Shown here piece by piece: positions 36,000 through 58,778 of a DNA stretch of 64,000 bases (within the stretch, counting starts at the first letter, position 1; every line of letters begins with the position of its first letter). The notes under the pieces were generated by a model. The model saw nothing but the letters and a program-made list of their open reading frames with translations. It was not told where the DNA came from and searched no databases. The DNA is taken from the NCBI RefSeq assembly GCF_036588685.1, contig NC_086382.1:44206001-44270000 (forward strand). The letters are read 5' to 3'. Made by a program: the position numbers and the translations under genes. Origin of the DNA: Mytilus trossulus (Eukaryota).

Positions 36000-36890
36000 T
36001 GCTCCAAATGTATCTGGCATCCGTCTTGTTAATCATGAAAGAACTAATAATAAGTATGTTGATGAATCCTCTATGTTACAATCATTGAAAAGGGAACGAC
36101 GGGATGGTGGTTACGATAACTGGAACATATCATGATCATGTGCGACACAGATATCTCATAAAGGTTAACATCGTAATTGAGATGCTGTCCGTAAAACCTC
36201 GAGGGATAACTTCAACTTTGATTCTCAGAGTCGTTTGAATAATAGTATCCTTGTAAAAAGCAATCCACTATCAAGGAACTTGGTAAAGAAAACACAACCT
36301 CTGACGATATATACTTCATGTACATGCATACTTCATATGCAATCATACAAGATGCTAGAATGCAGCTTCATAGAATTGTAAAGTCACAATTGTGAAACTT
36401 AAAGTCGTTCATTTGTTCTGAACATACCATCTTTGTCAAATTGAAGAGGATATATAGTAAGGATATGAGACAGACATAACTGTATCTGTTGTATCCTTAA
36501 TTTCAATTTCGATTGGAAAGATGCGTCCACAATAGACACCAACATATGAAATAACTATCTTTTTTAGCGGAACTTGAAGTAAAGAATCATGTTAAATTAT
36601 TTTCATACTTTCTGAGAAGGTCTGGTATGAAAACATTATGTCATACATGAATAAAGGTGCAAGTCGAAAAAGGGGAATCATTTGGTTCCAATTCCCATAA
36701 GATTGCTGATTTATTGTTGAAAAAAACATCCTCCAAACGTAATCAAAATGTTGTCAATGAAAAGCAAGCTTCAGTTTCAAAGAATGTTGTGTCTAAATCA
36801 GTGTGTGTTTCTTTCTTTCATATCCATAGCGGCGTTCGGTCACAAGTTGTCTTATTTTTGATATTCAAATACGGTGATTAGTTATACTTT
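36000..36890 (-). mobile_element. Highly decayed inverted copy of the same Penelope-like RT
   Basis: The reverse complement gives FIDNILITFGGCFFQQ followed by a decayed MG(I)GTK segment; convergent with the 35010-35990 copy. Confidence 0.55.
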
Positions 36891-37864
36891 TTATTGCATT
36901 GGCTAATGGCTTTTTTTTTAAGAAATTAATGTTAGAAATGTAAGGAACTATATGTTTTTTTTACGCATTCACAATTTGTTTTGATCCGACGTTATCGACG
37001 TCTTGACAACGCCTATTATTGTATGACGTCAGAGAGTGAAATAACCACGTTTATCATATACTTAGACTAAATAACATATGATTTTTACCGTATGATAATA
37101 GCATAGAATTAACGTATATTCCATATTTTTTCGAATTGGTGCTTAGCGGGCTGATATGAAAAGTTTTTCACATGCTTCGCTTGTTATCACATGTCTTTCC
37201 GTAACGTTATCACATGGCATTCCGGTAATACTCGGCAAATTCCGAAAAATACACCTCAATACTACGTTTTCAGTGAAAAACATTACAAAGTAGTGCATAA
37301 AACAATTATTTGGATACTGGAAAGTTTATTGTGTAAAATAATATGAAAAATAAACAAAAACAAAAACAAACAAATTATTCAATAAATGCATTTTTTTAAA
37401 GTTTCAAACATAATTTAGAAAGCTACTTTTAAAAAGGTTGACTTTTCCAAACAATGTTCATTATTTTTATTGTTGATTTTTTTTTGTCGATTCGTCCATG
37501 TTAAAATGTTGGGTTTTTTTCTGTTGAGGCATATGATAGAAAGATTCATATCGAATGTACAAAAATTTGGGTCCGACGTCAGTGGACTTTTCACTCTTTG
37601 AACTTCTTTTCTAAAAGGATCAATATATGAATCTGTTATTTTTCTTTACTGTTGAAGCATATGATAAAAAGATCATAACATGTCATTTTCATATCGCATG
37701 TATTATCAGCCCTCGGTCAATATCAGCCCTCGAGCTATGCGGCTCTTGGGCTAATATTGAACCTAGGGCTGATAATACATGCGATATGAAAAATGCCATG
37801 AAATAATCTGATATTATCATATACTTAGACTAAATAACATATGATTCTTACCGTATGATGATAG

Positions 37865-38109
37865 TGTTATATGGTACGTTATAGTGTTTGTTACGTTATC
37901 AGATTAGATCGTTGATGAGGGAGACCGGAAGTGAGATTGTCGTCAGGACGAAAGCGTGTGGCAGATTTAAAAAGGACAATTAGTTGTTACTGGACCAGAT
38001 GAGTTAAGTTGAACATTTACTAACATTCTCAACTGTTATCTTGTTGTACATATTCAATTACAAATGTAAATAATAAACTGATTGATACGTTTACTTCTTG
38101 TGTGTTAAA
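37865..38109 (+). repeat. 5' LTR (245 bp)
   Basis: TGTTAT...GTTAAA (terminal CA mutated). Three substitutions versus the 3' LTR by my count. Confidence 0.95.
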
Positions 38110-38110
38110 G

Positions 38111-38129
38111 TGGTGACAGCGGTGTGGAT
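38111..38129 (+). promoter_or_regulatory. Primer binding site, tRNA-Leu type
   Basis: TGGTGACAGCGGTGTGGAT, complementary (with one extra T) to a tRNA-Leu 3' end ..AUCCCACCGCUGYCACCA; 1 nt after the LTR. Confidence 0.8.
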
Positions 38130-38991
38130 GGAGCGCCAATCGGGCCACTAGCGTTTATTGTGACTGATTCACGTGGTAACAATTTTGACAGTAACAGAAT
38201 ATTTGAACAGCCACCTGACTTTAGAATAGAATATTGTATTGTCCGTGGAGCCACAGTAAATGAGTTAAAGGACGTTTTCTTGCAAAGACTAAATAGTGTG
38301 GACACAAATAGATGTCTCCCAATAATCGTAAAAGTTGCAGTTGGAATAAACGACTTCACAAAATTTATTTAAAAATAAAAACAGGGAACGTGAGCTAGTA
38401 TATTCATGTGCTAAAGGTCTTGAAATATATGAGAAGATATTAGAATTTAAAGCAGCGGTTAAAGATAAATTACCAAATGCTTTAGTCGGTTTTATAACTG
38501 TGCCACCAATAAGTTTTAAGAAATATAAGGAACACTGTTTTGAGAATAAGAAGTTGACAGTTTCAGAGATATCGGACGATGATCTGCTCAAGTTTCAAAA
38601 GGATTTAGAAAAGGAAGTTGAACTGTTAAATGAAAAAATATTTTTTGGAAATTATGAAAAACAGTCAGGACATTTAAAAGGCTGTCGCACAATTTCTTGG
38701 CACAGATCAGTTTGCAGGCTTGGAAAAGTAAAACGAGGTAAAAAGTATCAAAAAGTATATAAAAACGATTTTCGAGAATTGTATGACGGAATACATGGTA
38801 CTTCGGCTATTAAACAACAGTGGTTTACACAGTTAATTATAGCTATCAGAGCTGAAATTGGTTGTACAAAAGCGGAGGCTGCACAATCGTCAGATGACAT
38901 AATAGCTGGCAGCTCGGTTGTAGAACATTCACAGTCAGAGGATAGTTACAGGGAAGACTCTTGGGATTTTAAGAGAGGACAATTAATGTAA
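38124..38991 (+). pseudogene. SGNH/GDSL hydrolase-like ORF inside the LTR element (frameshifted)
   Basis: Removing one T at ~38370 joins ORFs 38124-38372 and 38500-38991 into ~288 codons. Blocks: FIVTDSRG (I), VRGA (II), VAVGIND (III), YDGIHGT (V). Confidence 0.8.
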
Positions 38992-39262
38992 AACTATAAA
39001 TGCTATTTTGTATCCTTTGGTAACAAGTTTTATGTTCAGTTAAGGTATTAAGAATATGTGTTTGTTCTCTTGATACATGTTGAGCCGCAGGTAGTAGCTC
39101 ATACATTGTAGTCAAGTTTTGTTTGAATAGAAACTGATCTTTATGCATATATATTTATATAAAAAGATTTTCATTATAAATATATCTAAACCTTAATTTC
39201 TTATTTTATATTGCTCTAAAGACAAACTTATAAACCTAGATATTTTTTGAAGAATTATAATA

Positions 39263-40196
39263 ATGGCGGAGAATGGAGACGAAGTACAGCATGTCGCAAA
39301 AACAAAAAGACCAATTGTTATGCCAGATGTCTTTACTGGTGAAGAAGAATGGACAGATTGGCTATTTCAGTTTGAAAGCTGCTCATCATTGAACGACTGG
39401 AATGATGGCTTAAAATGTAAATTCATTATAGTTAGATTGAAAGGAACGGCAGGTAAGGTTTAAAGCGATCTAGATGATGACACTAAGAAAGATTGGACTA
39501 AATTAAAAGCAGAACTAACTGCAAGGTTTGACACAACTACAAGGCCAGATCTTTATAAATCAGAGTTTATGGGAAGAAACCTTCGGAAACATATTTGGAA
39601 ATGGTTAATTCAATTAGAACTCTGGCACGTAAGGCATATCCATCTTTGTCAAATATTGTCCGAGATGAATTAGCCAAGGATCAGTTTTTAAGGGACCTAG
39701 ATAAGACAGAATTAGCTTTGAAAGTGAGACATGCAAATCCGAAACGCTTGATGAAGCTATAAGAATGACGTTAGAGTGGGAAGCAGTGGAGAAAGACGTT
39801 AAGGATACAAATACTGCTCCAGAACAGAAAATTTTGGCCACGATGACAGATGAAACGGGTGCATGTGCAAGTATCAACCCGTCAAAAACAGACGAGCTTA
39901 TTAGTCTGATGACAGACATGATGAAACTGATGAAAGAGGATAAAGAAAGAACAACAGTGTCTTCTAGATATCAGCCACGTGGAAGAGGAGGCTATGGTCG
40001 AGGGCAGCGAGGAGGAAATCAAAAGGACTTGCAATGTTGGACTTGTTATGATTTTGGCCATACAAGCAGAGAATGCCATAAAAATAGACAGACGGGACAG
40101 CGCGGGAAACCTGGTGGTTGCTGGACATGTGGGAGACCTGGGCACATTAGCAGAGATTGCAGCCAGAATCCGGGAAACGAAAACAGGCTGATGTGA
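39263..40196 (+). pseudogene. gag: gag, disrupted
   Basis: MPDVFTGEEEWTDWLFQFE N-terminus and two CX2CX4HX4C knuckles; stop at 39461 and frameshifts between ~39580 and 39750. Confidence 0.92.
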
Positions 40197-43100
40197 AGGG
40201 TCACACGTCAGCCAAAATATTGGACCCTGATAGAAATTACCCTTTGGATGAAGACAAGGTAGAAACTGACTGTTTTAGCACGGGACTGTCAATTGTTTGT
40301 AGTGGGAAGATTGAAGGAAGACTGGTGGATATGTTAGTCGATACTGGCTCAGTTTATACACTGATAAGTGAAGCTTTGTGGGAGACCTTACGGAGTAACT
40401 TGTGCACGAGTGATAGGTACAGGTGTGCAGCAGGTAGTAGCACTATTGTACCTAGTACACTTGAGTTAGTAAGGGAACAGCACAAGGTCGTATCAGCAAA
40501 TGGTGAACCTATTGATATCTTAGGGAAAACACAACTAAGTATTTGTATAGGACAGGAAGTGGGAAGACAGTCAGTTTTAGTAGCTAGGGACCTGGCACAG
40601 GAGTGCATCCTTGGGGTTGATTTTATGAGGGCCCATAAATTGATAATTGATTTTGATACCATGGCATTGAAATCTAAAACAACAAATATTTGCCTTAAGA
40701 AAGGAAACGCTAATCTTGCGTGTAACATAAAATGTGCTAAAAAAGAAGTAATTCCTGCTGGACATGAAAAGATTATTGACGGAAAACTTGTTGCTAAGGG
40801 CAGAGGAGAGGTTATGACGACAAATTATGTCGGTATAATTGAATCAAAATTAAGGCAAACAAATGAGAAACCTGTACTGTTAGCACGAAGCCTTGTAATG
40901 TCCAAAAAATTAACTGTACCATTGAGGGTAGCAAATTTTTCAAGTGAAGACGTGACAATCTACAAAAACACTACTCTAGGGATTTTCTCTACGATTGATG
41001 AGAACTTTGATAAAGACAAGGGTGTTTGTGGTGCGGTAAACAGTTCTACGGGTTGTACTGGCATCAGGAACACAATTGATAATATGCATGTTGATTGTTC
41101 ATTAAATCTTGAACAAAAAGGAAGACTCAATTCCCTGTTAGAGGAATATAGCAGCATATTTTCAAATGGACCAGCTGATCTTGGTCGAACCTCATTGGTG
41201 AAACACCACATTGAAACCGGTAGTAGTTGTCCCCTGCGACAAGGGGTAAGACGTGTGCCTATACACAAGCAGAAAGAAATCAAAGATCACATTGACAACA
41301 TGTTACAGGAAAGGATTATTCAGCCATCATGAAGCCCTTGGGCAGCTCCTGTGATTTTAGTGCCTAAGAAGGATGGTAGTACTAGGTTTTGTATTGATTA
41401 TCGCCGGATAAATTCAGTCACTAAAATAGATGCATATCCATTACCACGGATAGACCAGACGTTGGATGCTCTTGCAGGGGCAAAATTATTCTCTTCTCTC
41501 GATTTAGTTAGTGGTTACTGGCAGATAGAATTAGATGCTGAAAGCAGAGAGAAGAGTGCGTTTACAACCAACTGGGGACTTTACGAGTTTAATGTCATTT
41601 CCGTTTGGTCTCTGTGGGGCACCTAGCACTTTTCAGAGACTGATGGAAACAGTTCTGGCGGGATTACAGTGGGACCTGTGTTTAGTTTACCTTGATGACA
41701 TTATCATCTTTAGTCACACTTTCGATGAACATTTAGTCAGACTCAAGGAGGTATTCGAAAGAATTCGAGGAGCGAACTTGAAGTTAAAACCTTCCAAATG
41801 TCACCTTTTGAAATCAAGAATTAATTGTTTAGGTCATGTAATTTCAGAAAAAGGTATTGAACCCGATGAAGCAAAAATCAAAGCTGTTAAGGACTGGACC
41901 CCTCCAAAATCTGCATCAGAGGTTCAGCAATTTTTAGGATTCGCCTCGTATTATAGACGATTTGTTGCAAAGTTTTCAGATATTGCATCACCATTATATA
42001 AATTGACTCAACAAAATACACCATTTATTTGGAATGATCGATGCCAAGATGCATTCTTGGAGTTGAAGAGGAAACTAACGACGGAACCTATTTTGGCTTT
42101 TCCGCTCAGTGACTGTGAGTTCATAGTTGATACTGATGCGAGTGATTTTGGAATAGGCGCTGTACTCTCACAGGTCCAGAATGAAAAGGAAGTCGTTATA
42201 GCTTATTCGAGTCGAACATTGAGCAAGTCTGAAAGGAACTACTGTACTACGAGAAAAGAGCTTCTAGCATTAGTGTTTTTCATTAAACAATATCGTCATT
42301 ATTTGTATGGCAAGAAATTTCGGGCAAGAACAGATCACAAAGCACTGAAATGGCTTTTCTCAATGAAGGAACCGGAAGGTCAAACTGCTCGGTGGATCAC
42401 ACAGTTATCAGAGTATGAATTTTCTATAGAACACAGAGAAGGTAAACGTCATAGAAATGCAGACGGAATGTCTAGAATACCTTGCAACCAGTGTGGTAAT
42501 GAGGATAATAATAATGCTACCTCTGTTGTAAATAAGCAATTTTGTTATGAACAGAATGATACGTCGAGGAGACAACAAAAATTAGTGAATAAGAATGATA
42601 CATCAGCTGGTTCTGGAACAGCATGTTGCAGCTCTAGAATCACTGATACGTCATCTACGTTAAGAGACCAGTCATCAAATGATAGTTTCCAGAAAGCGCA
42701 ACAGAAACAAGACAAAGACATTTATATGGTTTTATCTTGGGACATTGGAAATAGACGACCAGAATTTCGTGACGTTGAAGGAAAAAGTCCTGTGGTTAAG
42801 GACTTGTGGAGCAAGTTTGACCAATTGGTATTACACAATGAAATGCTATATATAAGATGGGAAAATGCAAGGAAAGAAGAATATAAATTGAAGATGGTTG
42901 TTCCACGTAAATTAGTCAATGAAATACTATACAACCTTCATACTAGCCCACTAGGGGGACATTTGGGAGTGTCAAAAACATTTGGAAAAGTTTCTGAAAG
43001 ATTTTATTGGTTTGGACTGAGGCGTGACGTTGAAAATTATGTCGCTAACTGCGTTGAATGTGTTACAAGGAAGAATCCGAGTAGAACAGCTAGAGCGCCG

Positions 43101-43736
43101 TTACAGCCACATTATTCTGGAGCTCCATTTGAGAAAATAGCAATTGACATATTGGAAGTGCCTATGTCGGATCAAGGGAACAGATTTATTGTGGTAATTG
43201 GAGATTATTTCTCTAAGTGGGCAGAGGCTTTCCCTTTAAAGAATCACACAGCTCCTGTGATCGCCGAAATCCTCATTGATCAGTTTGTATGTAGATTTGG
43301 TGCACCATTCCAATTGCATAGTTACCAGGGGCCTGAATTTGAGTCTCGACTGATATCAGAACTATGCAAGTTACTAGGAATTGATAAAACAAGGACGACT
43401 ACGTACCACCCTCAATCAGACGGTCAAGTTGAAAGATTCAATAGAACACTGCTCTCTATGCTCAGCAAGTACGTCAAAGAAAACCAAAGAGACTGGGATG
43501 TTCACCTACAAAAAGTGATGATGGGGTATAGAACTAGTGAACATGAGTCTACAAAGTTTTCCCCGGCTTATGTTCTTTTTGGAAGGGAACTTAGACTTCC
43601 ACTGGATGTGCAGTATCAGTTGCCTGATGGCAGCACTGCAAAACATGCCAGTGAATATGTGACGAGAACTAAGGAGAGATTTTTACAGGCATACGAAGTA
43701 GTAAGGGACTTTGTGCTTGACGATGAACTTGATTAA
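40157..43736 (+). pseudogene. pol: pol (protease, RT, RNase H, integrase), disrupted
   Basis: LVDTGS, YLDD, VDTDAS, HHCC, IAIDI..HSYQG..GQVER. Stop at 41330, frameshift at ~41600, second catalytic Asp of integrase changed to Tyr, C-terminus short. Confidence 0.95.
40172..40213 (+). promoter_or_regulatory. -1 programmed ribosomal frameshift signal (gag-pol)
   Basis: G GGA AAC in the gag phase (40172-40178), 7-nt spacer, stem GGCUGAUGUG/CACGUCAGCC (40186-40213); pol is in the -1 frame. Confidence 0.85.
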
Positions 43737-43842
43737 CTTTATGACAATTGATATATTTTAAACATGTGTGTAAATTTTGTCGTATCAAGAATTTATTTTA
43801 TTCATATAGATACGAGGACGTGTCTTACATAGTGGAGGACAA

Positions 43843-44100
43843 TGTTATATGGTACGTTATAGTGTTTGTTACGTTATCAGATTAGATCGGTGATGAGGGA
43901 GACCGGAAGTGAGATTGTCGTCAGGACAAAAGCGTGTGGCAGATTTAAAAAGGACAATTAGTTGTTACTGGACCAGATGAGTTAAGTTGAACATTTACTA
44001 ACATTCTCAACTGTTATCTTGTTGTACATATTCAATTACAAATGTAAATAATAAACTGATTGATACGTTTACTTCTTGTGTGTTCTTCTTGTGTGTTACA
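43843..44100 (+). repeat. 3' LTR (258 bp)
   Basis: TGTTAT...GTTACA with an extra 13-bp duplication CTTCTTGTGTGTT; preceded by AGTGGAGGACAA. Confidence 0.95.
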
Positions 44101-46402
44101 ATAGCATAGAATTAACGTATATTCCATATTTTTTCGAATTGGTGCTTAGCGGGCTGATATGAAAAGTTTATCACATGCTTCGATTGTTATCACATGTCTT
44201 TCCGTAAAGTTATCACATGACATTCCGGTAATACTCGACAAATTCCGGAAAATACACCTCAAGACTACGTTTTCAGTGAAAACATTACAAAGTAGTGCAT
44301 AAAACAATTATGTGGATACTGGAAAGTTTATTGTGTAAAATAATATGAAAAATAAACAAAAACAAAAACAAACAAATTTTTCAATAAATGCATTTTTTTT
44401 AAAGTTTGAAACATAATTTAGAAAGCTACTTTAAAAAAGGTTGGCTTTTCCAAACAATATTCATTATGTTTATTGTTGGGGTTTTTTTTTTGTCGATTCG
44501 TCCATGTTAAAATATTGGGTTTTTTTCTGTTGAGGCATATGATAGAAAGATTTAAATCGAATGAACAAAAATTTGGGTCCGACGTCCGTGGACTTTTCAC
44601 TCTCTAAAAGGATCAATATATGAATCTATTATTTTTCTTTACTGTTGAAGCAACAATCAATATGTTGACGCAAGAAGCAATATCAGCCCTCGAGCCATGC
44701 GGCTCTTGGGCTGATATTGAACCTAGGGCTGATAATACATGTGATATGAAAAATGCCATGTAATAATCTGATATTATTTCACATGTGAAATTATCGGTTT
44801 TTATTTAACTGGGAAATCAATTTAATTCATTGCAACCAATGTAATAATATTTGATAACTTAGTGAACCGCTTTATTAATATGAAAATATTATTGTTTTCT
44901 AAATCTCTTTAAATCTTGACCAAAATTAGTATATGTCTACTTTTAGGATTAAACTATATCATGTCATATTACAGAGGGCCCAGATGGGGTTAACATAATA
45001 GAGAATTATGGGTAAAAGGTGCAGAATAAATTGTTTAAAATATTATAAATAGAGGGGGGGGAAAAGAATAGAAAATAAGCTGTTAATTATACCAAAAAAA
45101 AAGTTCTTAATGGACAACTGAATAAAGAAAAGAGGAAATAAGATCTGAAAATTAAAGACAAAACAATTGAAGGAATCCCCTCCGGACCCTCATTGTTATT
45201 AACTAATATTGAGTATTTTGTATTACTTTTAAAAACATAAGATTTTTAACCGATTACGTACTCTCAAAATGATTTTCCAATCATTGAATAGATAATTTGG
45301 GGTTAAACTACATGTTCTATTTACAATGACGAAATCTATTGTTTGAAAGTATGGACGTGAAGATTTCGATCTAAGTTAAAAGCTTTGTTCAAGCATTGTT
45401 AAACTTTCATTTAGAAACTTTAAATGAATTTTGAAACGTAATGCATGTGGGTCTTTGACTTTTAATTAACTAGTTTGTCAAAGGAATAAAATAAAATCAT
45501 ACGTTAATGCATGAGAGATATATTTGTTAATGACTTACAATAATCAACAAATTGGGTGGAACTTTGTGCTGGAATTACACCAGTCCATAATATAGCATTC
45601 AGTATAAGGCTTCGACAGATTAATATATTTTGAAAAACATGGAAAAGGAAAAATGAGAAATATTGGAAAACATGCCATAATACAAATATAAGGTTAGTGT
45701 GCATCGTCCATGTGAATTTAAAACAAAAACAAAATCCTTTTTTTGTTTAAATCCTGTAACTATAGGTCAGACACGTATCAAACGATAATCACTGCATTAT
45801 CGTAGTTTCCTTACTTGGGACAAATGAATACAGAATGTGGCATTATTATGGTGTCATTTTATATAGAATAATAATATATAAGGATCGAATGAACGCCAAT
45901 GAGAAAACTCTCCCCCCGAGACCTACTGACATTGAAGTTAACAAAGTGATATAAATAATAAAGTGTGGTATGATAGCCAATGAGACAACAATCCACCAAA
46001 GTTCAAATGAAGTGGATGCAAGCAATCCCATGTATACGTCATCGTACGGTTTTCAACAATGAGCAAAATCCATACTGCATATTGAGCTATAAAAGGCCCG
46101 AGAAGAAAAATGTAAAACAAGAAAACGAACGGCCTAATTTATGAACAAAACAAATACGATATATAGCAACAAACGACAACCAGTACTGAATAACAGGCTG
46201 CTGACTCAAAAACAGACACATACAGAATGTTACGGGGTTAAACATGTTTGCTGGCACAAAACCCTCCCATTTCCTGGGACAGTGGTGTGAGATTACAACA
46301 TTATAACACGTATAAAGGTCAGTTTAAAAGAACTAAACTCATAAGACCGAGTCATCGCAGTTACTGAAAGCTAATAGATAAATCATGTAAATGTATCTAA
46401 GA

Positions 46403-48335: not shown

Positions 48336-49062
48336 AGAACACTAGTCAAACATTCAATGGGATCATAGTGATGTTAGTATGTAAAGCTACGTTTAACACC
48401 AAGAGTTCACATATTACCGACCGTTGGAGGGCTGAAAAGCCCGTCAAGGTCGTTAAACACTTCCATATATATGAGTTCATATCGACCACGCGAGGGCTTT
48501 ATAGTTAGTCAATATTCATTATGTTTTTCGCAGAATTCGTTTAACTCTATCAAAATAGTAACGGGGGCTTTAGTCCACTACAAAAATAATATTCTAGTCG
48601 GAAAGATTGGTATTTAATGAGTTTGTTTCCAATCAAAATCCAGCCCAGTGAATCAATACACAAAACATATACTAGAGATCACTGTGTATTTCTGACAAAT
48701 GTAGTTTAGGTAAATAATTATTAATGAGTAAATTCGCCACCAGAATTTTTGCTGAATTTAAATTAAACTTTATCTTAAAATTTCAATGCAATAATACATT
48801 TTCACCTTTCCATCATATCAATTTTCCGTAACCCCATGCAATTAAGTCATCTTAAAATCTTATTTGTCATGTGACATGTCAAACATGATTGTCCTGCTTT
48901 AAAATTAATATTTTATATAGCACCTTGTAAGAATCACGTCAATATTTGTAAACATTTCTTGATTGTTTATTTTCTTTTTATTAGGGGATTGTTTGATCAG
49001 CACGTATTGTTGTAGTAATCCGATTTAAGATGGACATTTATTGACTCCGTACAAAGTAATCA

Positions 49063-50163
49063 ATGACCGCCATTGCTTCACAAAAAGCTTACCTGTATGA
49101 AACGAGGGGCAGTGCAAAGGGAAGGCAGAGGCACAATTTGGACTATAAACTTGAAGGTCGTCATGCAACGCTCGCTTGTCGGGATTCTGCATCGCTTAAA
49201 GGAAAATTTTCATTAAGTATAGGACGCAAAGTAGATTTGTCTAAAGAAAAGGAAGAGAAAGAAAAAAGAAAAGATGAACGAAGCGATGCTGATCCTGTGA
49301 TTTTACCGAAATGTAGAGAGGAAACGTCGACCGATCTAATGGAAAAGTGCGAAACATCGGTTGAAGAATCGGCATATCAACTCATGCGTGAAAATACAGA
49401 TGACGTACCATTGACTGAAGAGCTTCTTAGTAATGATACAAATCTTTATCCAACTATATGTTCAGAATGTGCTAAATTAAGTCTGTATCGAAAAATTGGA
49501 CGGTTTAAAAATGCAATTATAAATGATGATAAGGAACTAAATACTTGTGTTATTTGTGAAAAAAAGAAACTTTCAAATAGGAAATCTGTGAAAGATGAAA
49601 AAACTTTACTGATGTCAATTATATATCCACATGATTTTTATGATCGATATCAGAGTGTAAGACGAAATTTCCAAACACCATCTGATGATGTTGAAAGAAA
49701 ACGAGAACGCATAAGGAAAACAATCCATCAGAAAACTATAGTGCCGAAACAGAGTATAACACTTCCGGATACCGTAAATGAAGGAGATAAAGTCCTCCTT
49801 AAGCCTCATGTTGTAAGATTCAAAGAAAAGGAGAAACAAAGGAGGGAAAGCATTGTAAATGTCGTAAATCATGAGTTCGAAATTGACAACAGAATTATAT
49901 CTAGTAGCATTAACATTCTACCGCCATTAAAAGTGACAACACCAATGCCTACGAAACCTAAGCATATGCGATGTATACCTCAGACGAAGGCTTACTTTGT
50001 CGCATCAATGACCTCTGAGAGTGTCTCAAGAGAACATAAGTGTTCTTGGTTTGATCAAAAGAAATCATTTAGAGGCTTTATGCTGTCAAGGAGTGAAAAA
50101 TTCGAAAGACCAAAACTAGCAGACGTGAGACACTGTAAGTATATTATTTCAGAAAATTCATAG
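49063..50163 (+). CDS. Uncharacterised 366-aa charged protein, single coding exon
   Basis: 1.1-kb non-repetitive ORF in AT-rich DNA; strong acceptor (TTTTCTTTTTATTAG, ~48984) upstream of the ATG; AATAAA just after the stop. Confidence 0.75.
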   Translation: MTAIASQKAYLYETRGSAKGRQRHNLDYKLEGRHATLACRDSASLKGKFSLSIGRKVDLSKEKEEKEKRKDERSDADPVILPKCREETSTDLMEKCETSVEESAYQLMRENTDDVPLTEELLSNDTNLYPTICSECAKLSLYRKIGRFKNAIINDDKELNTCVICEKKKLSNRKSVKDEKTLLMSIIYPHDFYDRYQSVRRNFQTPSDDVERKRERIRKTIHQKTIVPKQSITLPDTVNEGDKVLLKPHVVRFKEKEKQRRESIVNVVNHEFEIDNRIISSSINILPPLKVTTPMPTKPKHMRCIPQTKAYFVASMTSESVSREHKCSWFDQKKSFRGFMLSRSEKFERPKLADVRHCKYIISENS

Positions 50164-54849: not shown

Positions 54850-56024
54850 GTAGATAAAGAACAGATCTTACGTCAACATGGCCGTGATTGTCAGTATAAA
54901 GAACAGATCTTACGTCAGCATGGCCGAGATTGTCAGTATAAAGAACAGATCTTACGTCAACATGGCCGTGATTGTCAGTATAAAGAACAAATCTTACGTG
55001 AACAGGGCCGTGATTGTCAGTATAAAGAACAAATCTTACGTCAACATGGCCGTGATTGTCAGTATAAAGAACAGATATTACGTCAACAGGGCCGTGATTG
55101 TCAGTATAAAGAACAGATATTACGTCAACAGGGCCGTGATTGTCAGTATAAAGAACAGATCTTACATCAGCATAGCCAAGATTGTCAGTATAAAGAACAG
55201 ATCTTACGTCAACATGGCCGAGATTGTCAGTATAAAGAACAGCACTACGTCAACATGGCCGAGATTGTCAGTATAAAGAACAGATCTTACGTCAACATGG
55301 CCGAGATTAACAGTATAAAGAACAGATTTTACGTCAACATGGCCGAGACTGTCAGTATCAAGAACAGATCTTACATCAACATGGCCGCGATTGTCAGTAT
55401 AAAGAATAGATCTTACGTCAACATGGCCGTGATTGTCAGTATAAGGAACAGATATAACATCAACATGGCCGAGATTGTCAGTATAAAGAACAGATCTTAC
55501 GTCAACATGGCCGTGATTGTCAGTATAAAGAACAGATCTTACATCAACATAGCCAAGATTGTCAGTATAAAGAACAGATCTTACGTCAACATGGCCGAGA
55601 TTGTCAGTATAAAGAACAGATCTTACGTCAACATGGTCGGGTTAACAGTATAAAGAACAGATTTTACGTCAACATGGCCGAGACTGTCAGTATAAAGAAC
55701 AGACCTTACGTCAACATGGCCGTGATTGTCAGTATAAAGAACAGATCTTACATCAACATGGCCGCGATTGTCAGTATAAAGAACAGATCTTACGTCAACA
55801 TGACCGAGATTGTCAGTATAAAGAACAGATCTTACATCAACATGGCCGAGATTGTCAGTATAAAGAACAGATCTTACGTCAACATGGCCGAGATTGTCAG
55901 TATAAAGAACAGATCTTACGCCAACATGGCCGAGATTGTCAGTATAAAGAACAGATCTTACGTCAACATGGCCGAGATGGTCAGTATAAAGAACAGATCT
56001 TACGTCAACATGGAGATTGTCAGT
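54850..56024. repeat. 42-bp minisatellite, ~28 copies
   Basis: Unit CAGTATAAAGAACAGATCTTACGTCAACATGGCCGWGATTGT. Confidence 0.95.
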
Positions 56025-56995
56025 AGACACCTTGTTGGAACTTAGCCTTTTAAGTAAAATGTCTTGCACTGCCAGAAAAATATTTTTGTAATTATGAAAC
56101 TATTTTGTATTGTGTGAGAGTGATCATTGTTGAAGGTGAACATTGATCCTGGTGAGCGCACAGTCTATATTGAACGCACAGTCTCTATCGAACATTTGAT
56201 TTTCAAACCTTTAAAACAAAATCACGCATCTGCTATACTGTGAACTGCGACAAGCATAATTATGTGTAGAAGGAGATTAAGAGAGAGAAATTCTCTCTTC
56301 GTCATATCTTTTCAAGTACTACATCCAATTAGAAATGCAAAAAAAAATATTCAACAGAACCATGAACTGACGAAATATTTGCCACTGGTCGTTAAGCAAC
56401 CAGCAATCTATAAATCGTTAACAGATCTTATATTCCAACATATTTTAACGATTTGTTGTTACAGAACTTTCTCAAAAGAAAAGGATGGTTGAACGATCAC
56501 AAACTTATTATATTTTTTTTTTATTCGGGAGCCTGTATTCTGGAGTGGTAGTCTTTGGTTGCTGTTCCTCGGAATTGTAAGAACAATGTTGTAAATAGAT
56601 ATAGGAAGATGTGGTGTGAGTGCCAATGAGACAACTCTCCGTCCAAATAACAATTTAAAAATTAAACCATTATAGGTTAAAGTACGGCCTTCAACACGGA
56701 GCCTTGGCTCACACCAAACAACAAGCTATAAAGGGCCCCAAAATTACTAGTGTAAAACCATTCAAACGGGAAAACCAACGGTTGTAAATGTTTGTTTTTC
56801 GTTGTAAATGACTATTCTATATTGTATGAAAGAATAAATTGCAAATTGCATTTATTACTGATCTATATTTCATTAAATATTGAATAAATGAAGGGTTAGA
56901 CAATCGGTTCATATTGAAACATGTTCATGTTCCTTCCAAAAGACAACGCCAAGACAGTTACAGAGTAGGCCCACTCCTGTGATAACCAGTTAAAT

Positions 56996-57523
56996 CTATC
57001 GTTGTTTTACCACATTCAGTCTTCTTCTGAAATCCTGTAATGAATCTGCAAGTTGACTTTTACGAATTGTACCCTTTGAACGAATGAAAACCTCATGATA
57101 CAACAAACTGTTAGTTATGACGTTTTTACTATGGGCTATTTTTGGGATCCAGAAGCGAGGGTACGAGTAGCAGCCATTTGCTGAAGATTTATTGTGATGA
57201 ACATATTTATATTCGCAATTAGGTAAAATATTACCGTATTTTCCACATAAGAAGACTTTCTTTTCGAATTGATTATTGTTATATAATTCCTCCTCTTTGA
57301 TGGTATCCAATTTACCTGCAGTTTTTATTCTTGAAGGTTGATTTTTCACTTCGAACCTTTTTCTTAATGGCTTCTTTACGTTGTTGTCCATGAATTCCGA
57401 AGTAGTTAGAGACAGACTATGTTTAGCAATTGCAGCTTTACTGACCTTCAGTTGCAGTTCCGGATGGTCAAAGCTTCTTAATTTTTGATATCTCAATTTT
57501 GAATAATCCTTTGTCGTGTACAT
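56996..57523 (-). CDS. Uncharacterised basic 175-aa protein, single coding exon
   Basis: ATG-started non-repetitive ORF; acceptor-like ACATTTACAG ending at 57561 upstream. No domain recognised. Confidence 0.55.
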   Translation of the reverse strand: MYTTKDYSKLRYQKLRSFDHPELQLKVSKAAIAKHSLSLTTSEFMDNNVKKPLRKRFEVKNQPSRIKTAGKLDTIKEEELYNNNQFEKKVFLCGKYGNILPNCEYKYVHHNKSSANGCYSYPRFWIPKIAHSKNVITNSLLYHEVFIRSKGTIRKSQLADSLQDFRRRLNVVKQR

Positions 57524-58778
57524 TCCGTTCTAACTCTTTTTTTTAAATATAGAATTTTAGCTGTAAATGTTAAATAGCAGATAATCGCTACACTTAAGGC
57601 GAAAGTACAACACGACGTAACTCACAATTATTTTAAAGATCCATTTTATCAGGCAGAAATGAGAGTAAGAAAAGTAAAACTTTCCAACACTATAGGACAT
57701 AATTTAAGTATAATAAATACTTGTTCGGTTTTATCAAATACATATGTATAGCTATAATATCCTTTTTCTTTTTGAAATTTAAATAAATGTTTGTCTATTA
57801 TATTGTAAGGTTTTGGGAAAGTTTATTTTCCCACATTTTAAGACGGGAATGTCCAGTAAAGACGTGTTAATAAATGCAAATAATATGTATTTACATATCG
57901 ATAAACACTAAGAAATCTGTGAAGAAAATGTACATATTTAAATTAAGTGTGAATATTGATCAATGTTTCATTAAAGTTCAATTACAAAGTTTAAAATATT
58001 GTTGACATTTCCCTTAATTCAAATAGTATGTTGATTTTCAGAAAATAAGAGATGTAAACAAGTAGATATAATGTACGATAATTAGGACTAAACAATAATT
58101 TTGCACCTGTCCTAAGTCAGGAATCTGATGTACAGTAGTTGTCGTTTGTTTATGTAATATATACGTGTTTCTCGTTTCTCGTTTTGTTTATATAGATTAG
58201 ACCGTTGGTTTTCCCGTTTGAATGGTTTTACACTAGTAATTTTGGGGCCCTTTATAGCTTGTTGTTCGGTGTGAGCCAAGGCTCCGTGTTGAAGGCCGTA
58301 CTTTAACCTATAATGGTTTAATTTTTAAATTGTTATTTGGATGGAGAGTTGTCTCATTGGCACTCACACCACATCTTCCTATATCTATTTATAGAGGAGG
58401 ATGACACGCTTTTTTGATTTGTGAAATCAGAGACAAATACTATATGTCTCTGGTGAAATGGAGTTTACAAAGTGGAGATGAAGGGTAAAAGGGGTAAAAT
58501 AAAGTAGAAATGAGGGATATTGGGAAAGGGAATAAAATGTGATATGTTTTAAAAAAACCTTTGTTCATTGCACACAAAAAAATCTTGAAGCTCATACTTT
58601 TCTCCTTTTAATTTTAATTAGGTCGAACTCAAAATTTTGAAAAAAATTATGTTCCAACTAAAATCGAAAAGCTTTTTCCCTTCATGTGTATTTGAAATAG
58701 ATATGTTATATTCAAAACCGGTTAATTATTTCAATCGATGCTACACTGCATGTAGTTTGAAATTTAAAAGAATAGTAA

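Follow-up and report, generated by a model that had tools for sequence, protein, structure and literature searches.

The stretch of DNA analysed here (the window) comprises 64,000 nucleotides of A+T-rich, eukaryotic DNA from Mytilus trossulus and holds, at 37865-44100, a 6.2-kb Ty3/Gypsy element with long terminal repeats (LTRs) that are ~99% alike and a 4-bp target-site duplication (Table 1). The LTRs differ by three substitutions and one 13-bp duplication, the terminal dinucleotide of the 5′ LTR is not identical to that of the 3′ LTR, and an unoccupied site with a single copy of the 4-mer is preserved near 37099, in an adjoining duplicate of the host unit. The primer-binding site (PBS), which we take to be of the tRNA-Leu type, begins one base beyond the 5′ LTR. 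Pfam places the pol domains in the order protease, reverse transcriptase (RT), RNase H and integrase, both here and in two related elements described below, L001 and L002; the pol of L002 matches Ty3 Gag-Pol at E 1e-123 and the next non-Ty3 entry at E 3e-60. In all three elements about 100-170 nt separate the pol stop from the 3′ LTR, with no env-sized ORF between them. By every feature tested, the element in the window is a member of Ty3/Gypsy. The window gave no tRNA gene, and 36500-45500 matched no Rfam family.

Between protease and RT, the three elements carry a further domain of ~100 aa (window 40712-41050, L002 3402-3716, L001 2855-3160) that is 34-39% conserved. For a low-confidence model of this domain (pLDDT 60, three sequences), the best 14 structural matches are dUTPase-fold proteins, the best of them weak (Z 5.8, rmsd 3.8 Å, 75 aligned), and Pfam reports no dUTPase in the window, L001 or L002; the domain may have a dUTPase fold, probably in degenerate form.

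This copy of the element is dead. Its gag contains a stop at 39461 and frameshifts near 39575 and 39745; its pol contains a stop at 41330, a frameshift near 41603 and an altered integrase core motif, and the C-terminal part of the integrase, found in relatives, is missing. Some of the frameshifts sit in base runs and could be assembly errors.

Table 1. Features of the Ty3/Gypsy element, in window coordinates; rows refer to the alignment of 106 ORF0-family proteins
Feature	Position	Strand	Basis or remark
5′ target-site duplication, 4 bp	37861..37864	+	identical 4-mer at 44101-44104
5′ LTR, 245 bp, TG start, AATAAA at 38072	37865..38109	+	alignment to 3′ LTR
ORF0, SGNH hydrolase, one +1 frameshift, no in-frame ATG start	38109..38991	+	
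PBS	38111..38128	+	L001, L002 have same motif after LTR
SGNH block I, TDSRG (nucleophile Ser, then family-conserved Arg)	38163..38177	+	D 99, S 100, R 100 of 106 rows
SGNH block II, RGA (oxyanion Gly)	38244..38252	+	G in 106 of 106 rows
SGNH block III, GIND (oxyanion Asn)	38343..38354	+	N in 68, C in 38 of 106 rows
Basic beta-hairpin insertion just 5′ of block V	38704..38766 (approximate)	+	model strands 234-241, 244-251
SGNH block V, DGIH (catalytic Asp-x-x-His)	38785..38796	+	D 105, G 106, H 106 of 106 rows
Spacer separating ORF0 from gag, 271 nt, 76% A+T, 5 ATGs	38992..39262	+	
gag with two CCHC knuckles, broken	39263..40196	+	
pol, -1 frame relative to gag: protease, linker with possible dUTPase fold, RT, RNase H, integrase; broken	40151..43736	+	
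Polypurine tract (PPT)	43831..43842	+	directly 5′ of 3′ LTR
3′ LTR, 258 bp, TG...CA	43843..44100	+	
3′ target-site duplication	44101..44104	+	

The additional reading frame before gag, ORF0, reads the PBS in frame. It is open from 38109 to 38369, meets a stop at 38370-38372 and resumes in the +1 frame, where it ends with the stop codon 38989-38991; read through with an X at the break, which falls within a T/A run at about 38364-38373, it spans 293 steps, or 288 counted from a GTG at 38124. An ATG does occur at 38128, out of frame and followed by a reading frame of only seven codons, and the window ORF0 contains no Met except as its last codon. These readings bear out an earlier note on this DNA, which had described a frame of ~288 codons starting at the PBS, a single break at ~38370, an off-frame ATG at 38128 and four SGNH motifs, all of which translate where it had placed them. 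Its overall span of 38111-39262 holds at the start, which is the PBS, and fails at the end, where everything after the ORF0 stop is spacer. The frame runs on through the PBS (38076-38135), and the subfamily to which this copy belongs has no evident ATG start. Translation may begin there at the GTG at 38124, at a codon inside U5 or on a spliced exon, and the predicted Met starts of relatives may be GTG or TTG codons called as Met by prokaryotic gene callers.

As to its surroundings, ~780 bp are tandemly duplicated here (37040-37830 and 37814-44777, 88% alike), and the element sits in one of the copies; at the end of the duplication is a long, imperfect inverted repeat (37655-37826) that may be a non-autonomous DNA element. 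Large segmental duplications occupy 2500-33000, at spacings of about 13.6 and 11.3 kb and with many stretches 96-99% alike, and 54854-56025 consists of a 42-bp tandem repeat in 28 copies with long open frames. At 56592-58391, 191-bp inverted repeats, 99% complementary and 1418 nt apart, enclose a 177-codon minus-strand frame with no Pfam match; this segment looks like a non-autonomous TIR transposon. A 367-codon open frame at 49060-50163, outside the element and with no convincing Pfam match, is possibly a host exon.

The SGNH hydrolase family of ORF0

Sequence searches of Pfam, NCBIfam and the PDB returned no SGNH match for the window ORF0 protein, so that Pfam, one of the means by which the earlier note had proposed to recognize the family, is silent on this protein. 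A profile of nine close relatives likewise found no match in the PDB. A profile of 106 family members gave six weak PDB matches, including 3p94 (E 0.7) and 4c1b (E 1.6), and weak matches to Pfam Lipase_GDSL and Lipase_GDSL_2 occur in 9 and 4 of these members, respectively (best E 8e-5).

Relatives of ORF0 are nonetheless numerous. A homologue search recovered 14 at 40-97% identity among 979 candidates, the nearest named proteins being from Mytilus edulis and M. coruscus (81-97% identity), and the profile of nine relatives reached 447 clusters (50% identity) at E ≤0.001 and 188 at 1e-10; the family sample lists 150 of them. From 161 short proteins we dropped fragments and odd gene models, leaving 106 near full-length sequences (alignment A3). 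Ser, Gly, Asp and His are present together in 99 of the 106 rows, and all five catalytic residues including Asn in 63; Arg directly follows the nucleophile Ser in 100. The hairpin just 5′ of block V has a median net charge of +7 and at least +4 in 99 of 106 rows, as against -2 to +2 in other 21-column windows. An acidic tail with a W-D-F-K-R-like end is found in 46 rows. Members with Cys for Asn in block III (38 of 106) fall mostly on one tree branch.

We compared structures through P0002, an intact M. edulis protein that shares 281 of 293 positions (~96%) with the window read-through and whose predicted model has a mean pLDDT of 86.7 and a core above 95. Its best match is the GDSL protein 4rw0 (Z 18.1, rmsd 2.4 Å, 171 aligned), and the best 50 matches listed are all SGNH-type, some by their entry titles and others by what we take those proteins to be; a Foldseek search of the same model had the same outcome. 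The SGNH fold anticipated by the earlier note is thus found, in this intact near-twin of the window protein. Atlas neighbours are clusters from Mollusca and Annelida (taxa read from few members) and GDSL-bearing clusters, with Lipase_GDSL families present in 21-30% of the members of neighbour clusters. A viral fold library yielded phage and giant-virus SGNH domains at 9-18% identity and identified no viral donor of ORF0. The four motifs alone would be insufficient; the 14 relatives, the invariant catalytic columns and the fold match together settle the assignment. By predicted fold and motifs, ORF0 is a member of the SGNH superfamily, yet one that lies below the curated Pfam GDSL cut-off, and a large invertebrate protein family thereby escapes Pfam.

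ORF0 in related elements

Genome contigs were scanned with patterns from the nine-row alignment, the 106-row alignment being too diverse for this use, and 35 pattern matches yielded two confirmed loci, both of them Gypsy elements; because of the origin of the patterns, these two are biased towards close relatives. L001 (JBEVXV010000954.1) consists of LTR, PBS, leader, an intact 289-aa ORF0, gag beginning 12 nt after the ORF0 stop, pol with one frameshift, PPT and LTR. L002 (JBEVXV010001270.1) consists of LTR, PBS, an intact 241-aa ORF0 at 1164-1889, spacer, intact gag, an intact pol of 1490 aa, PPT and LTR. In both, ORF0 begins with ATG and the integrase keeps GPY/GPF, and both share one PBS type with the window element. 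The ORF0s of L001 and L002 are 37-40% identical to that of the window and 50% identical to each other; RT-RNase H identity among the three elements is 57-67% (57-60% for the window against either of the others). The L002 sequence shows circular permutation or collapse, and its pol tail contains 54-bp tandem repeats. Despite the filing of both loci under a bacterial MAG, we rejected a bacterial origin, as both are complete eukaryote-type LTR retrotransposons; they are apparently host DNA binned there as contamination.

Long proteins give the same order. Three were found among 7999 candidates scored, of which two are Mytilus gene models reading ORF0-gag-pol, one with an ORF0 only 37% identical, and the third is an ORF0 spliced onto an unrelated protein; a second long-fusion search added nothing new. 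P0005, P0007, P0012 and P0014 open with the peptide that a PBS would encode in the ORF0 frame, which suggests the same position for these four; their predicted N-termini start within the end of the LTR, in that register. On the DNA context of three elements and two gene models, the layout LTR-PBS-ORF0-gag-pol-PPT-LTR is almost certainly a trait of the whole lineage.

Four Mytilus gene predictions (P0017, P0011, P0010 and P0002) have ORF0 spliced to unrelated upstream exons at the LTR end. These exons may be prediction artefacts or cases of exonisation, and gene predictors evidently absorb the family into host gene models (P0017, P0011, P0010).

Between L001 and L002, ORF0 differs with pN 0.35 and pS 0.79, and Gag with pN 0.38 and pS 0.81; the two pieces of the window ORF0 give pN 0.41-0.46 and pS 0.70-0.81. 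Codon-position identity in ORF0 is 0.58/0.69/0.37, second positions being best kept, and protein identity is 50% for ORF0 and 48% for Gag. Because synonymous sites are saturated, these values do not yield an exact dN/dS. Judged from these comparisons, neutral evolution of ORF0 is excluded, and the conservation of its protein is close to that of Gag. The earlier note's main proposal, a Gypsy lineage with an SGNH gene 5′ of gag, is therefore upheld by fold, by position in divergent families and by purifying selection; of the outcomes it had named as fatal, a one-off insertion is contradicted by the same placement in L001, L002 and the two gene models, and neutral drift by the saturated synonymous sites and Gag-like conservation.

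How widely the family is tied to Gypsy elements is a separate matter. In a quick tree of 111 ORF0 rows, the eight rows with shown or inferred Gypsy context all cluster in a single group of 26 (SH-aLRT 90), which leaves 85 rows outside it. In a four-taxon congruence test, ORF0 and integrase favour the same topology and Gag is unresolved, and the AU test rejects no topology. One gene model, P0154, joins an ORF0-like N-terminus to another stretch that has no Pfam match and that we read, by motif, as LINE endonuclease-like.

The family may accordingly be an esterase pool swapped among mollusc and annelid elements, with most of the 447 clusters in other elements or host genes and the 5′ place reflecting one capture in one subclade. 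We regard this as a serious possibility, just short of probable, and one compatible with any function of the enzyme. The placement of all eight rows with shown or inferred Gypsy context in one group of the tree fits it, as do the hint of a LINE link in P0154 and published GDSL ORFs common to LTR and Penelope-like elements (described in the available sections of PMC5408684). It sits less well with the fact that both loci with DNA are Gypsy elements, albeit found by patterns from close relatives, with the occurrence of the W-D-F-K-R tail in both the Gypsy-linked group and the most distant group of the tree and, weakly, with the count of no non-Gypsy element among the 8000 candidates scored in the second long-fusion search.

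Expression and possible function

The layout suggests that ORF0 would be the first cistron of the element RNA, made as a separate protein with no Gag fusion. In that case gag-pol, sitting behind a long first ORF, presents a translation puzzle: it must be reached by splicing, reinitiation or internal entry, scanning to gag being unlikely because ORF0 contains 10-13 ATGs. A consensus splice donor lies exactly 5 nt past the ORF0 stop in L001 (1451) and L002 (1895), in each the only occurrence of its 7-mer; with approximate weights, it ranks first among the 439 GT sites of L001 and second among the 447 of L002. In L002, the 121 nt of 1895-2015 run from GT to AG, and with them spliced out the ORF0 stop and the gag ATG would stand 12 nt apart, as they already do in L001. 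As a general feature this donor was rejected, since the window spacer contains weak donors only, the best of which (39020, 39045 and 39091) rank 26, 31 and 50 of 374, again with approximate weights. From the sequence, splicing or reinitiation is a plausible route to gag.

The window holds a decayed copy of a Gypsy lineage in which ORF0 is a long-standing accessory gene, maintained by selection, for a soluble protein of the SGNH serine esterase type. The best explanation taken whole, which we advance tentatively and rate somewhat below probable, adds to this a membrane role for the 5′ accessory esterase. Conservation argues that intact copies very probably encode a catalytically active enzyme, with a Ser-His-Asp triad and a Gly/Asn oxyanion hole; against the explanation as a whole stand the Cys in place of the block III Asn in 38 of 106 rows and the want of an evident ATG start in the window's subfamily. 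The linked ORF0s have no hydrophobic helix or leader (maximum 19-residue hydropathy 1.27-1.42).

With more reserve, we consider it possible, by analogy, that this soluble acyl-esterase has a lipid or membrane role at anionic lipids or membranes. By analogy with the ZfL2-1 esterase, ORF0 might dock on negatively charged membranes via its basic hairpin and the Arg beside the nucleophile, cleave an acyl chain off a lipid or a lipid-modified protein, and help the particles of an env-less element assemble on, move along or cross membranes. We favour lipids because the one characterised transposon esterase, that of ZfL2-1 ORF1, hydrolyses esters and binds anionic phospholipids and liposomes (available sections of PMC3905857), and because the conserved Arg and hairpin would offer an anion-binding surface near the active site. 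The fold itself does not point to lipids, since the structural neighbours of ORF0, at 9-18% identity, are for the most part acetylesterases for carbohydrates, sialate or small molecules; the hairpin fits nucleic acid as well as lipid; and ORF0, not being fused to Gag, has no evident route into particles.

It is rather unlikely that ORF0 instead serves counter-defence, deacetylating or deacylating host proteins, glycans or messengers and so blunting silencing or innate immunity. First place on the RNA would allow ORF0 to be made early, and the acidic tail with its W-D-F-K-R motif would recruit a host partner or mediate nuclear entry. A separate, soluble product of a first cistron would suit such a role, as would the recurrent tail motif, the nearest folds (acetylesterases and PAF acetylhydrolase) and the listing of protein deacylation as a possibility for transposon esterases (PMC3905857, in part). 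However, the catalytic core and surface hairpin have been conserved among deeply divergent members, with no visible fast evolution, the ZfL2-1 esterase failed a histone deacetylation assay (same source), and the acidic tail is absent from L002, an intact element.

Less likely again is a broader proposal, that an old, env-less Gypsy clade of molluscs and annelids carries a 5′ SGNH phospholipase or deacylase, expressed by splicing or reinitiation, as a substitute for env in cell or animal passage. If true, most of the 447 protein clusters would be the 5′ esterase gene of that clade.

A role on RNA, in which the hairpin and Arg bind nucleic acid and the enzyme either deacylates the charged tRNA primer or chaperones or exports the element RNA, seems to us improbable. 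The aminoacyl-tRNA bond is a carboxyl ester, and priming requires a free 3′-OH. The net charge of the hairpin and the single PBS type common to all three elements with DNA context would agree with this role, and Oskar OSK, an SGNH-fold domain that is reportedly RNA-binding, is among the matches listed (Z 13.2, rmsd 3.1 Å, 165 aligned). Yet most Gypsy elements, to our knowledge, prime without such an esterase gene, and esterases occur also in LINEs and Penelope-like elements, which use no tRNA primer. Further, the ZfL2-1 esterase does not bind oligo-A RNA (PMC3905857, in part). Finally, that ORF0 is a one-off or neutral passenger is scarcely credible: the window copy is frameshifted and lacks an ATG start, and intragenomic variation of Vesta ORF3s is reported as mostly neutral (PMC5408684, in part), against which stand an intact ORF0 in the same place in elements with such distant RT-RNase H domains, saturated synonymous sites and invariant catalytic residues.

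Relation to known esterases of mobile elements

With cellular SGNH hydrolases (Veillonella 4rw0, Parabacteroides 3p94, sialate O-acetylesterase 7pzg, PAF acetylhydrolase 1bwp), ORF0 shares the fold and the blocks at Z 16-18. It differs from them in its identity of only 9-18%, its D-S-R block I, its acidic tail and its two beta-hairpin insertions, one strongly basic.

The openly accessible literature that we searched yielded no report of a Gypsy element with an SGNH ORF placed between PBS and gag; such elements may be catalogued without comment in Repbase, GyDB, Dfam or subscription journals. The accessible portions of PMC6238403 (without its additional files), PMC10294476, PMC8220671, PMC2774666, PMC12440569, PMC6338049, PMC13524379, PMC8557442, PMC9025612 and PMC7599744 contain no relevant passage, and the named Gypsy clades MolGy1-16, C, AB, CsRN1 and Cigr-1 are defined there by tree only (PMC6238403). 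An esterase in a Gypsy element is not new in kind, as Vesta1 ORF3 attests (PMC5408684, in part); its 5′ position is what stands. Esterase-bearing Gypsy elements and LINE ORF1 esterases are already known, and what appears new, in that it was not found in the literature searched, is the 5′ position together with a mollusc and annelid subfamily with a basic hairpin.

SGNH accessory genes are also kept by other mobile elements, among them the Penelope-like Terminons/Athena and Neptune with their GDSL ORFs (PMC6431247, PMC5408684), Ngaro elements and a platyfish Helitron. These belong to other element classes, and the sections available describe no LTR-PBS-ORF0-gag arrangement for them. Gypsy accessory genes, usually env-like and placed after pol according to the earlier note, can also lie before gag: the MDG1 group, env-less like the elements described here, has accessory ORFs upstream of gag, sORF1 and sORF2, of 70-110 aa (10.1101/2025.03.14.642691, in part). 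By contrast with ORF0, a soluble enzyme of 240-290 aa, sORF2 is a FAST-like membrane protein.

An esterase domain is found in ORF1p of CR1, L2 (ZfL2-1, PDB 4c1b) and RTEX non-LTR elements (available sections of PMC3905857 and PMC4120745). As in ORF0, this is an SGNH domain with a conserved active site, encoded 5′ of the RT gene; in LINEs, however, it lies within ORF1p, has a coiled coil and replaces Gag, whereas ORF0 belongs to an LTR element that has a complete Gag besides, and it has no demonstrated counterpart of the ZfL2-1 coiled coil. The ZfL2-1 ORF1p is dispensable for retrotransposition in HeLa cells (PMC3905857), a point that, like the coiled coil, counts against the membrane role proposed for ORF0; its esterase, 4c1b, is not among the best 50 matches of either structural list.

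The closest likeness is to Vesta1 of bdelloid rotifers, a Gypsy-type element without env whose GDSL ORF3 is separate, keeps its catalytic residues and lacks a transmembrane or coiled-coil part; ORF3 has been proposed, not shown, to aid membrane passage (available sections of PMC5408684). Vesta1 also has a dUTPase domain between protease and RT, and the apparent dUTPase fold at that place in the mussel elements, there a weak model only, makes kinship possible. The two differ in host (rotifers against mussel) and in position: ORF3 follows pol (amplicons of about 1.3 kb), while ORF0, of about 0.7-0.9 kb, lies between PBS and gag, and no GDSL ORF follows pol in the window, L001 or L002. Further, GPY/F is reduced to proline in Vesta1-5 (PMC5408684) and kept as GPY/GPF in L001 and L002.

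SGNH esterases have been taken up repeatedly by unrelated mobile elements; the zebrafish LINE esterase has no known natural substrate, and the role of the rotifer ORF3 is a proposed one. Because ORF0 is a stand-alone, soluble and confidently modelled protein of 240-290 aa, with intact copies and under purifying selection, it makes the reason for this uptake directly testable.
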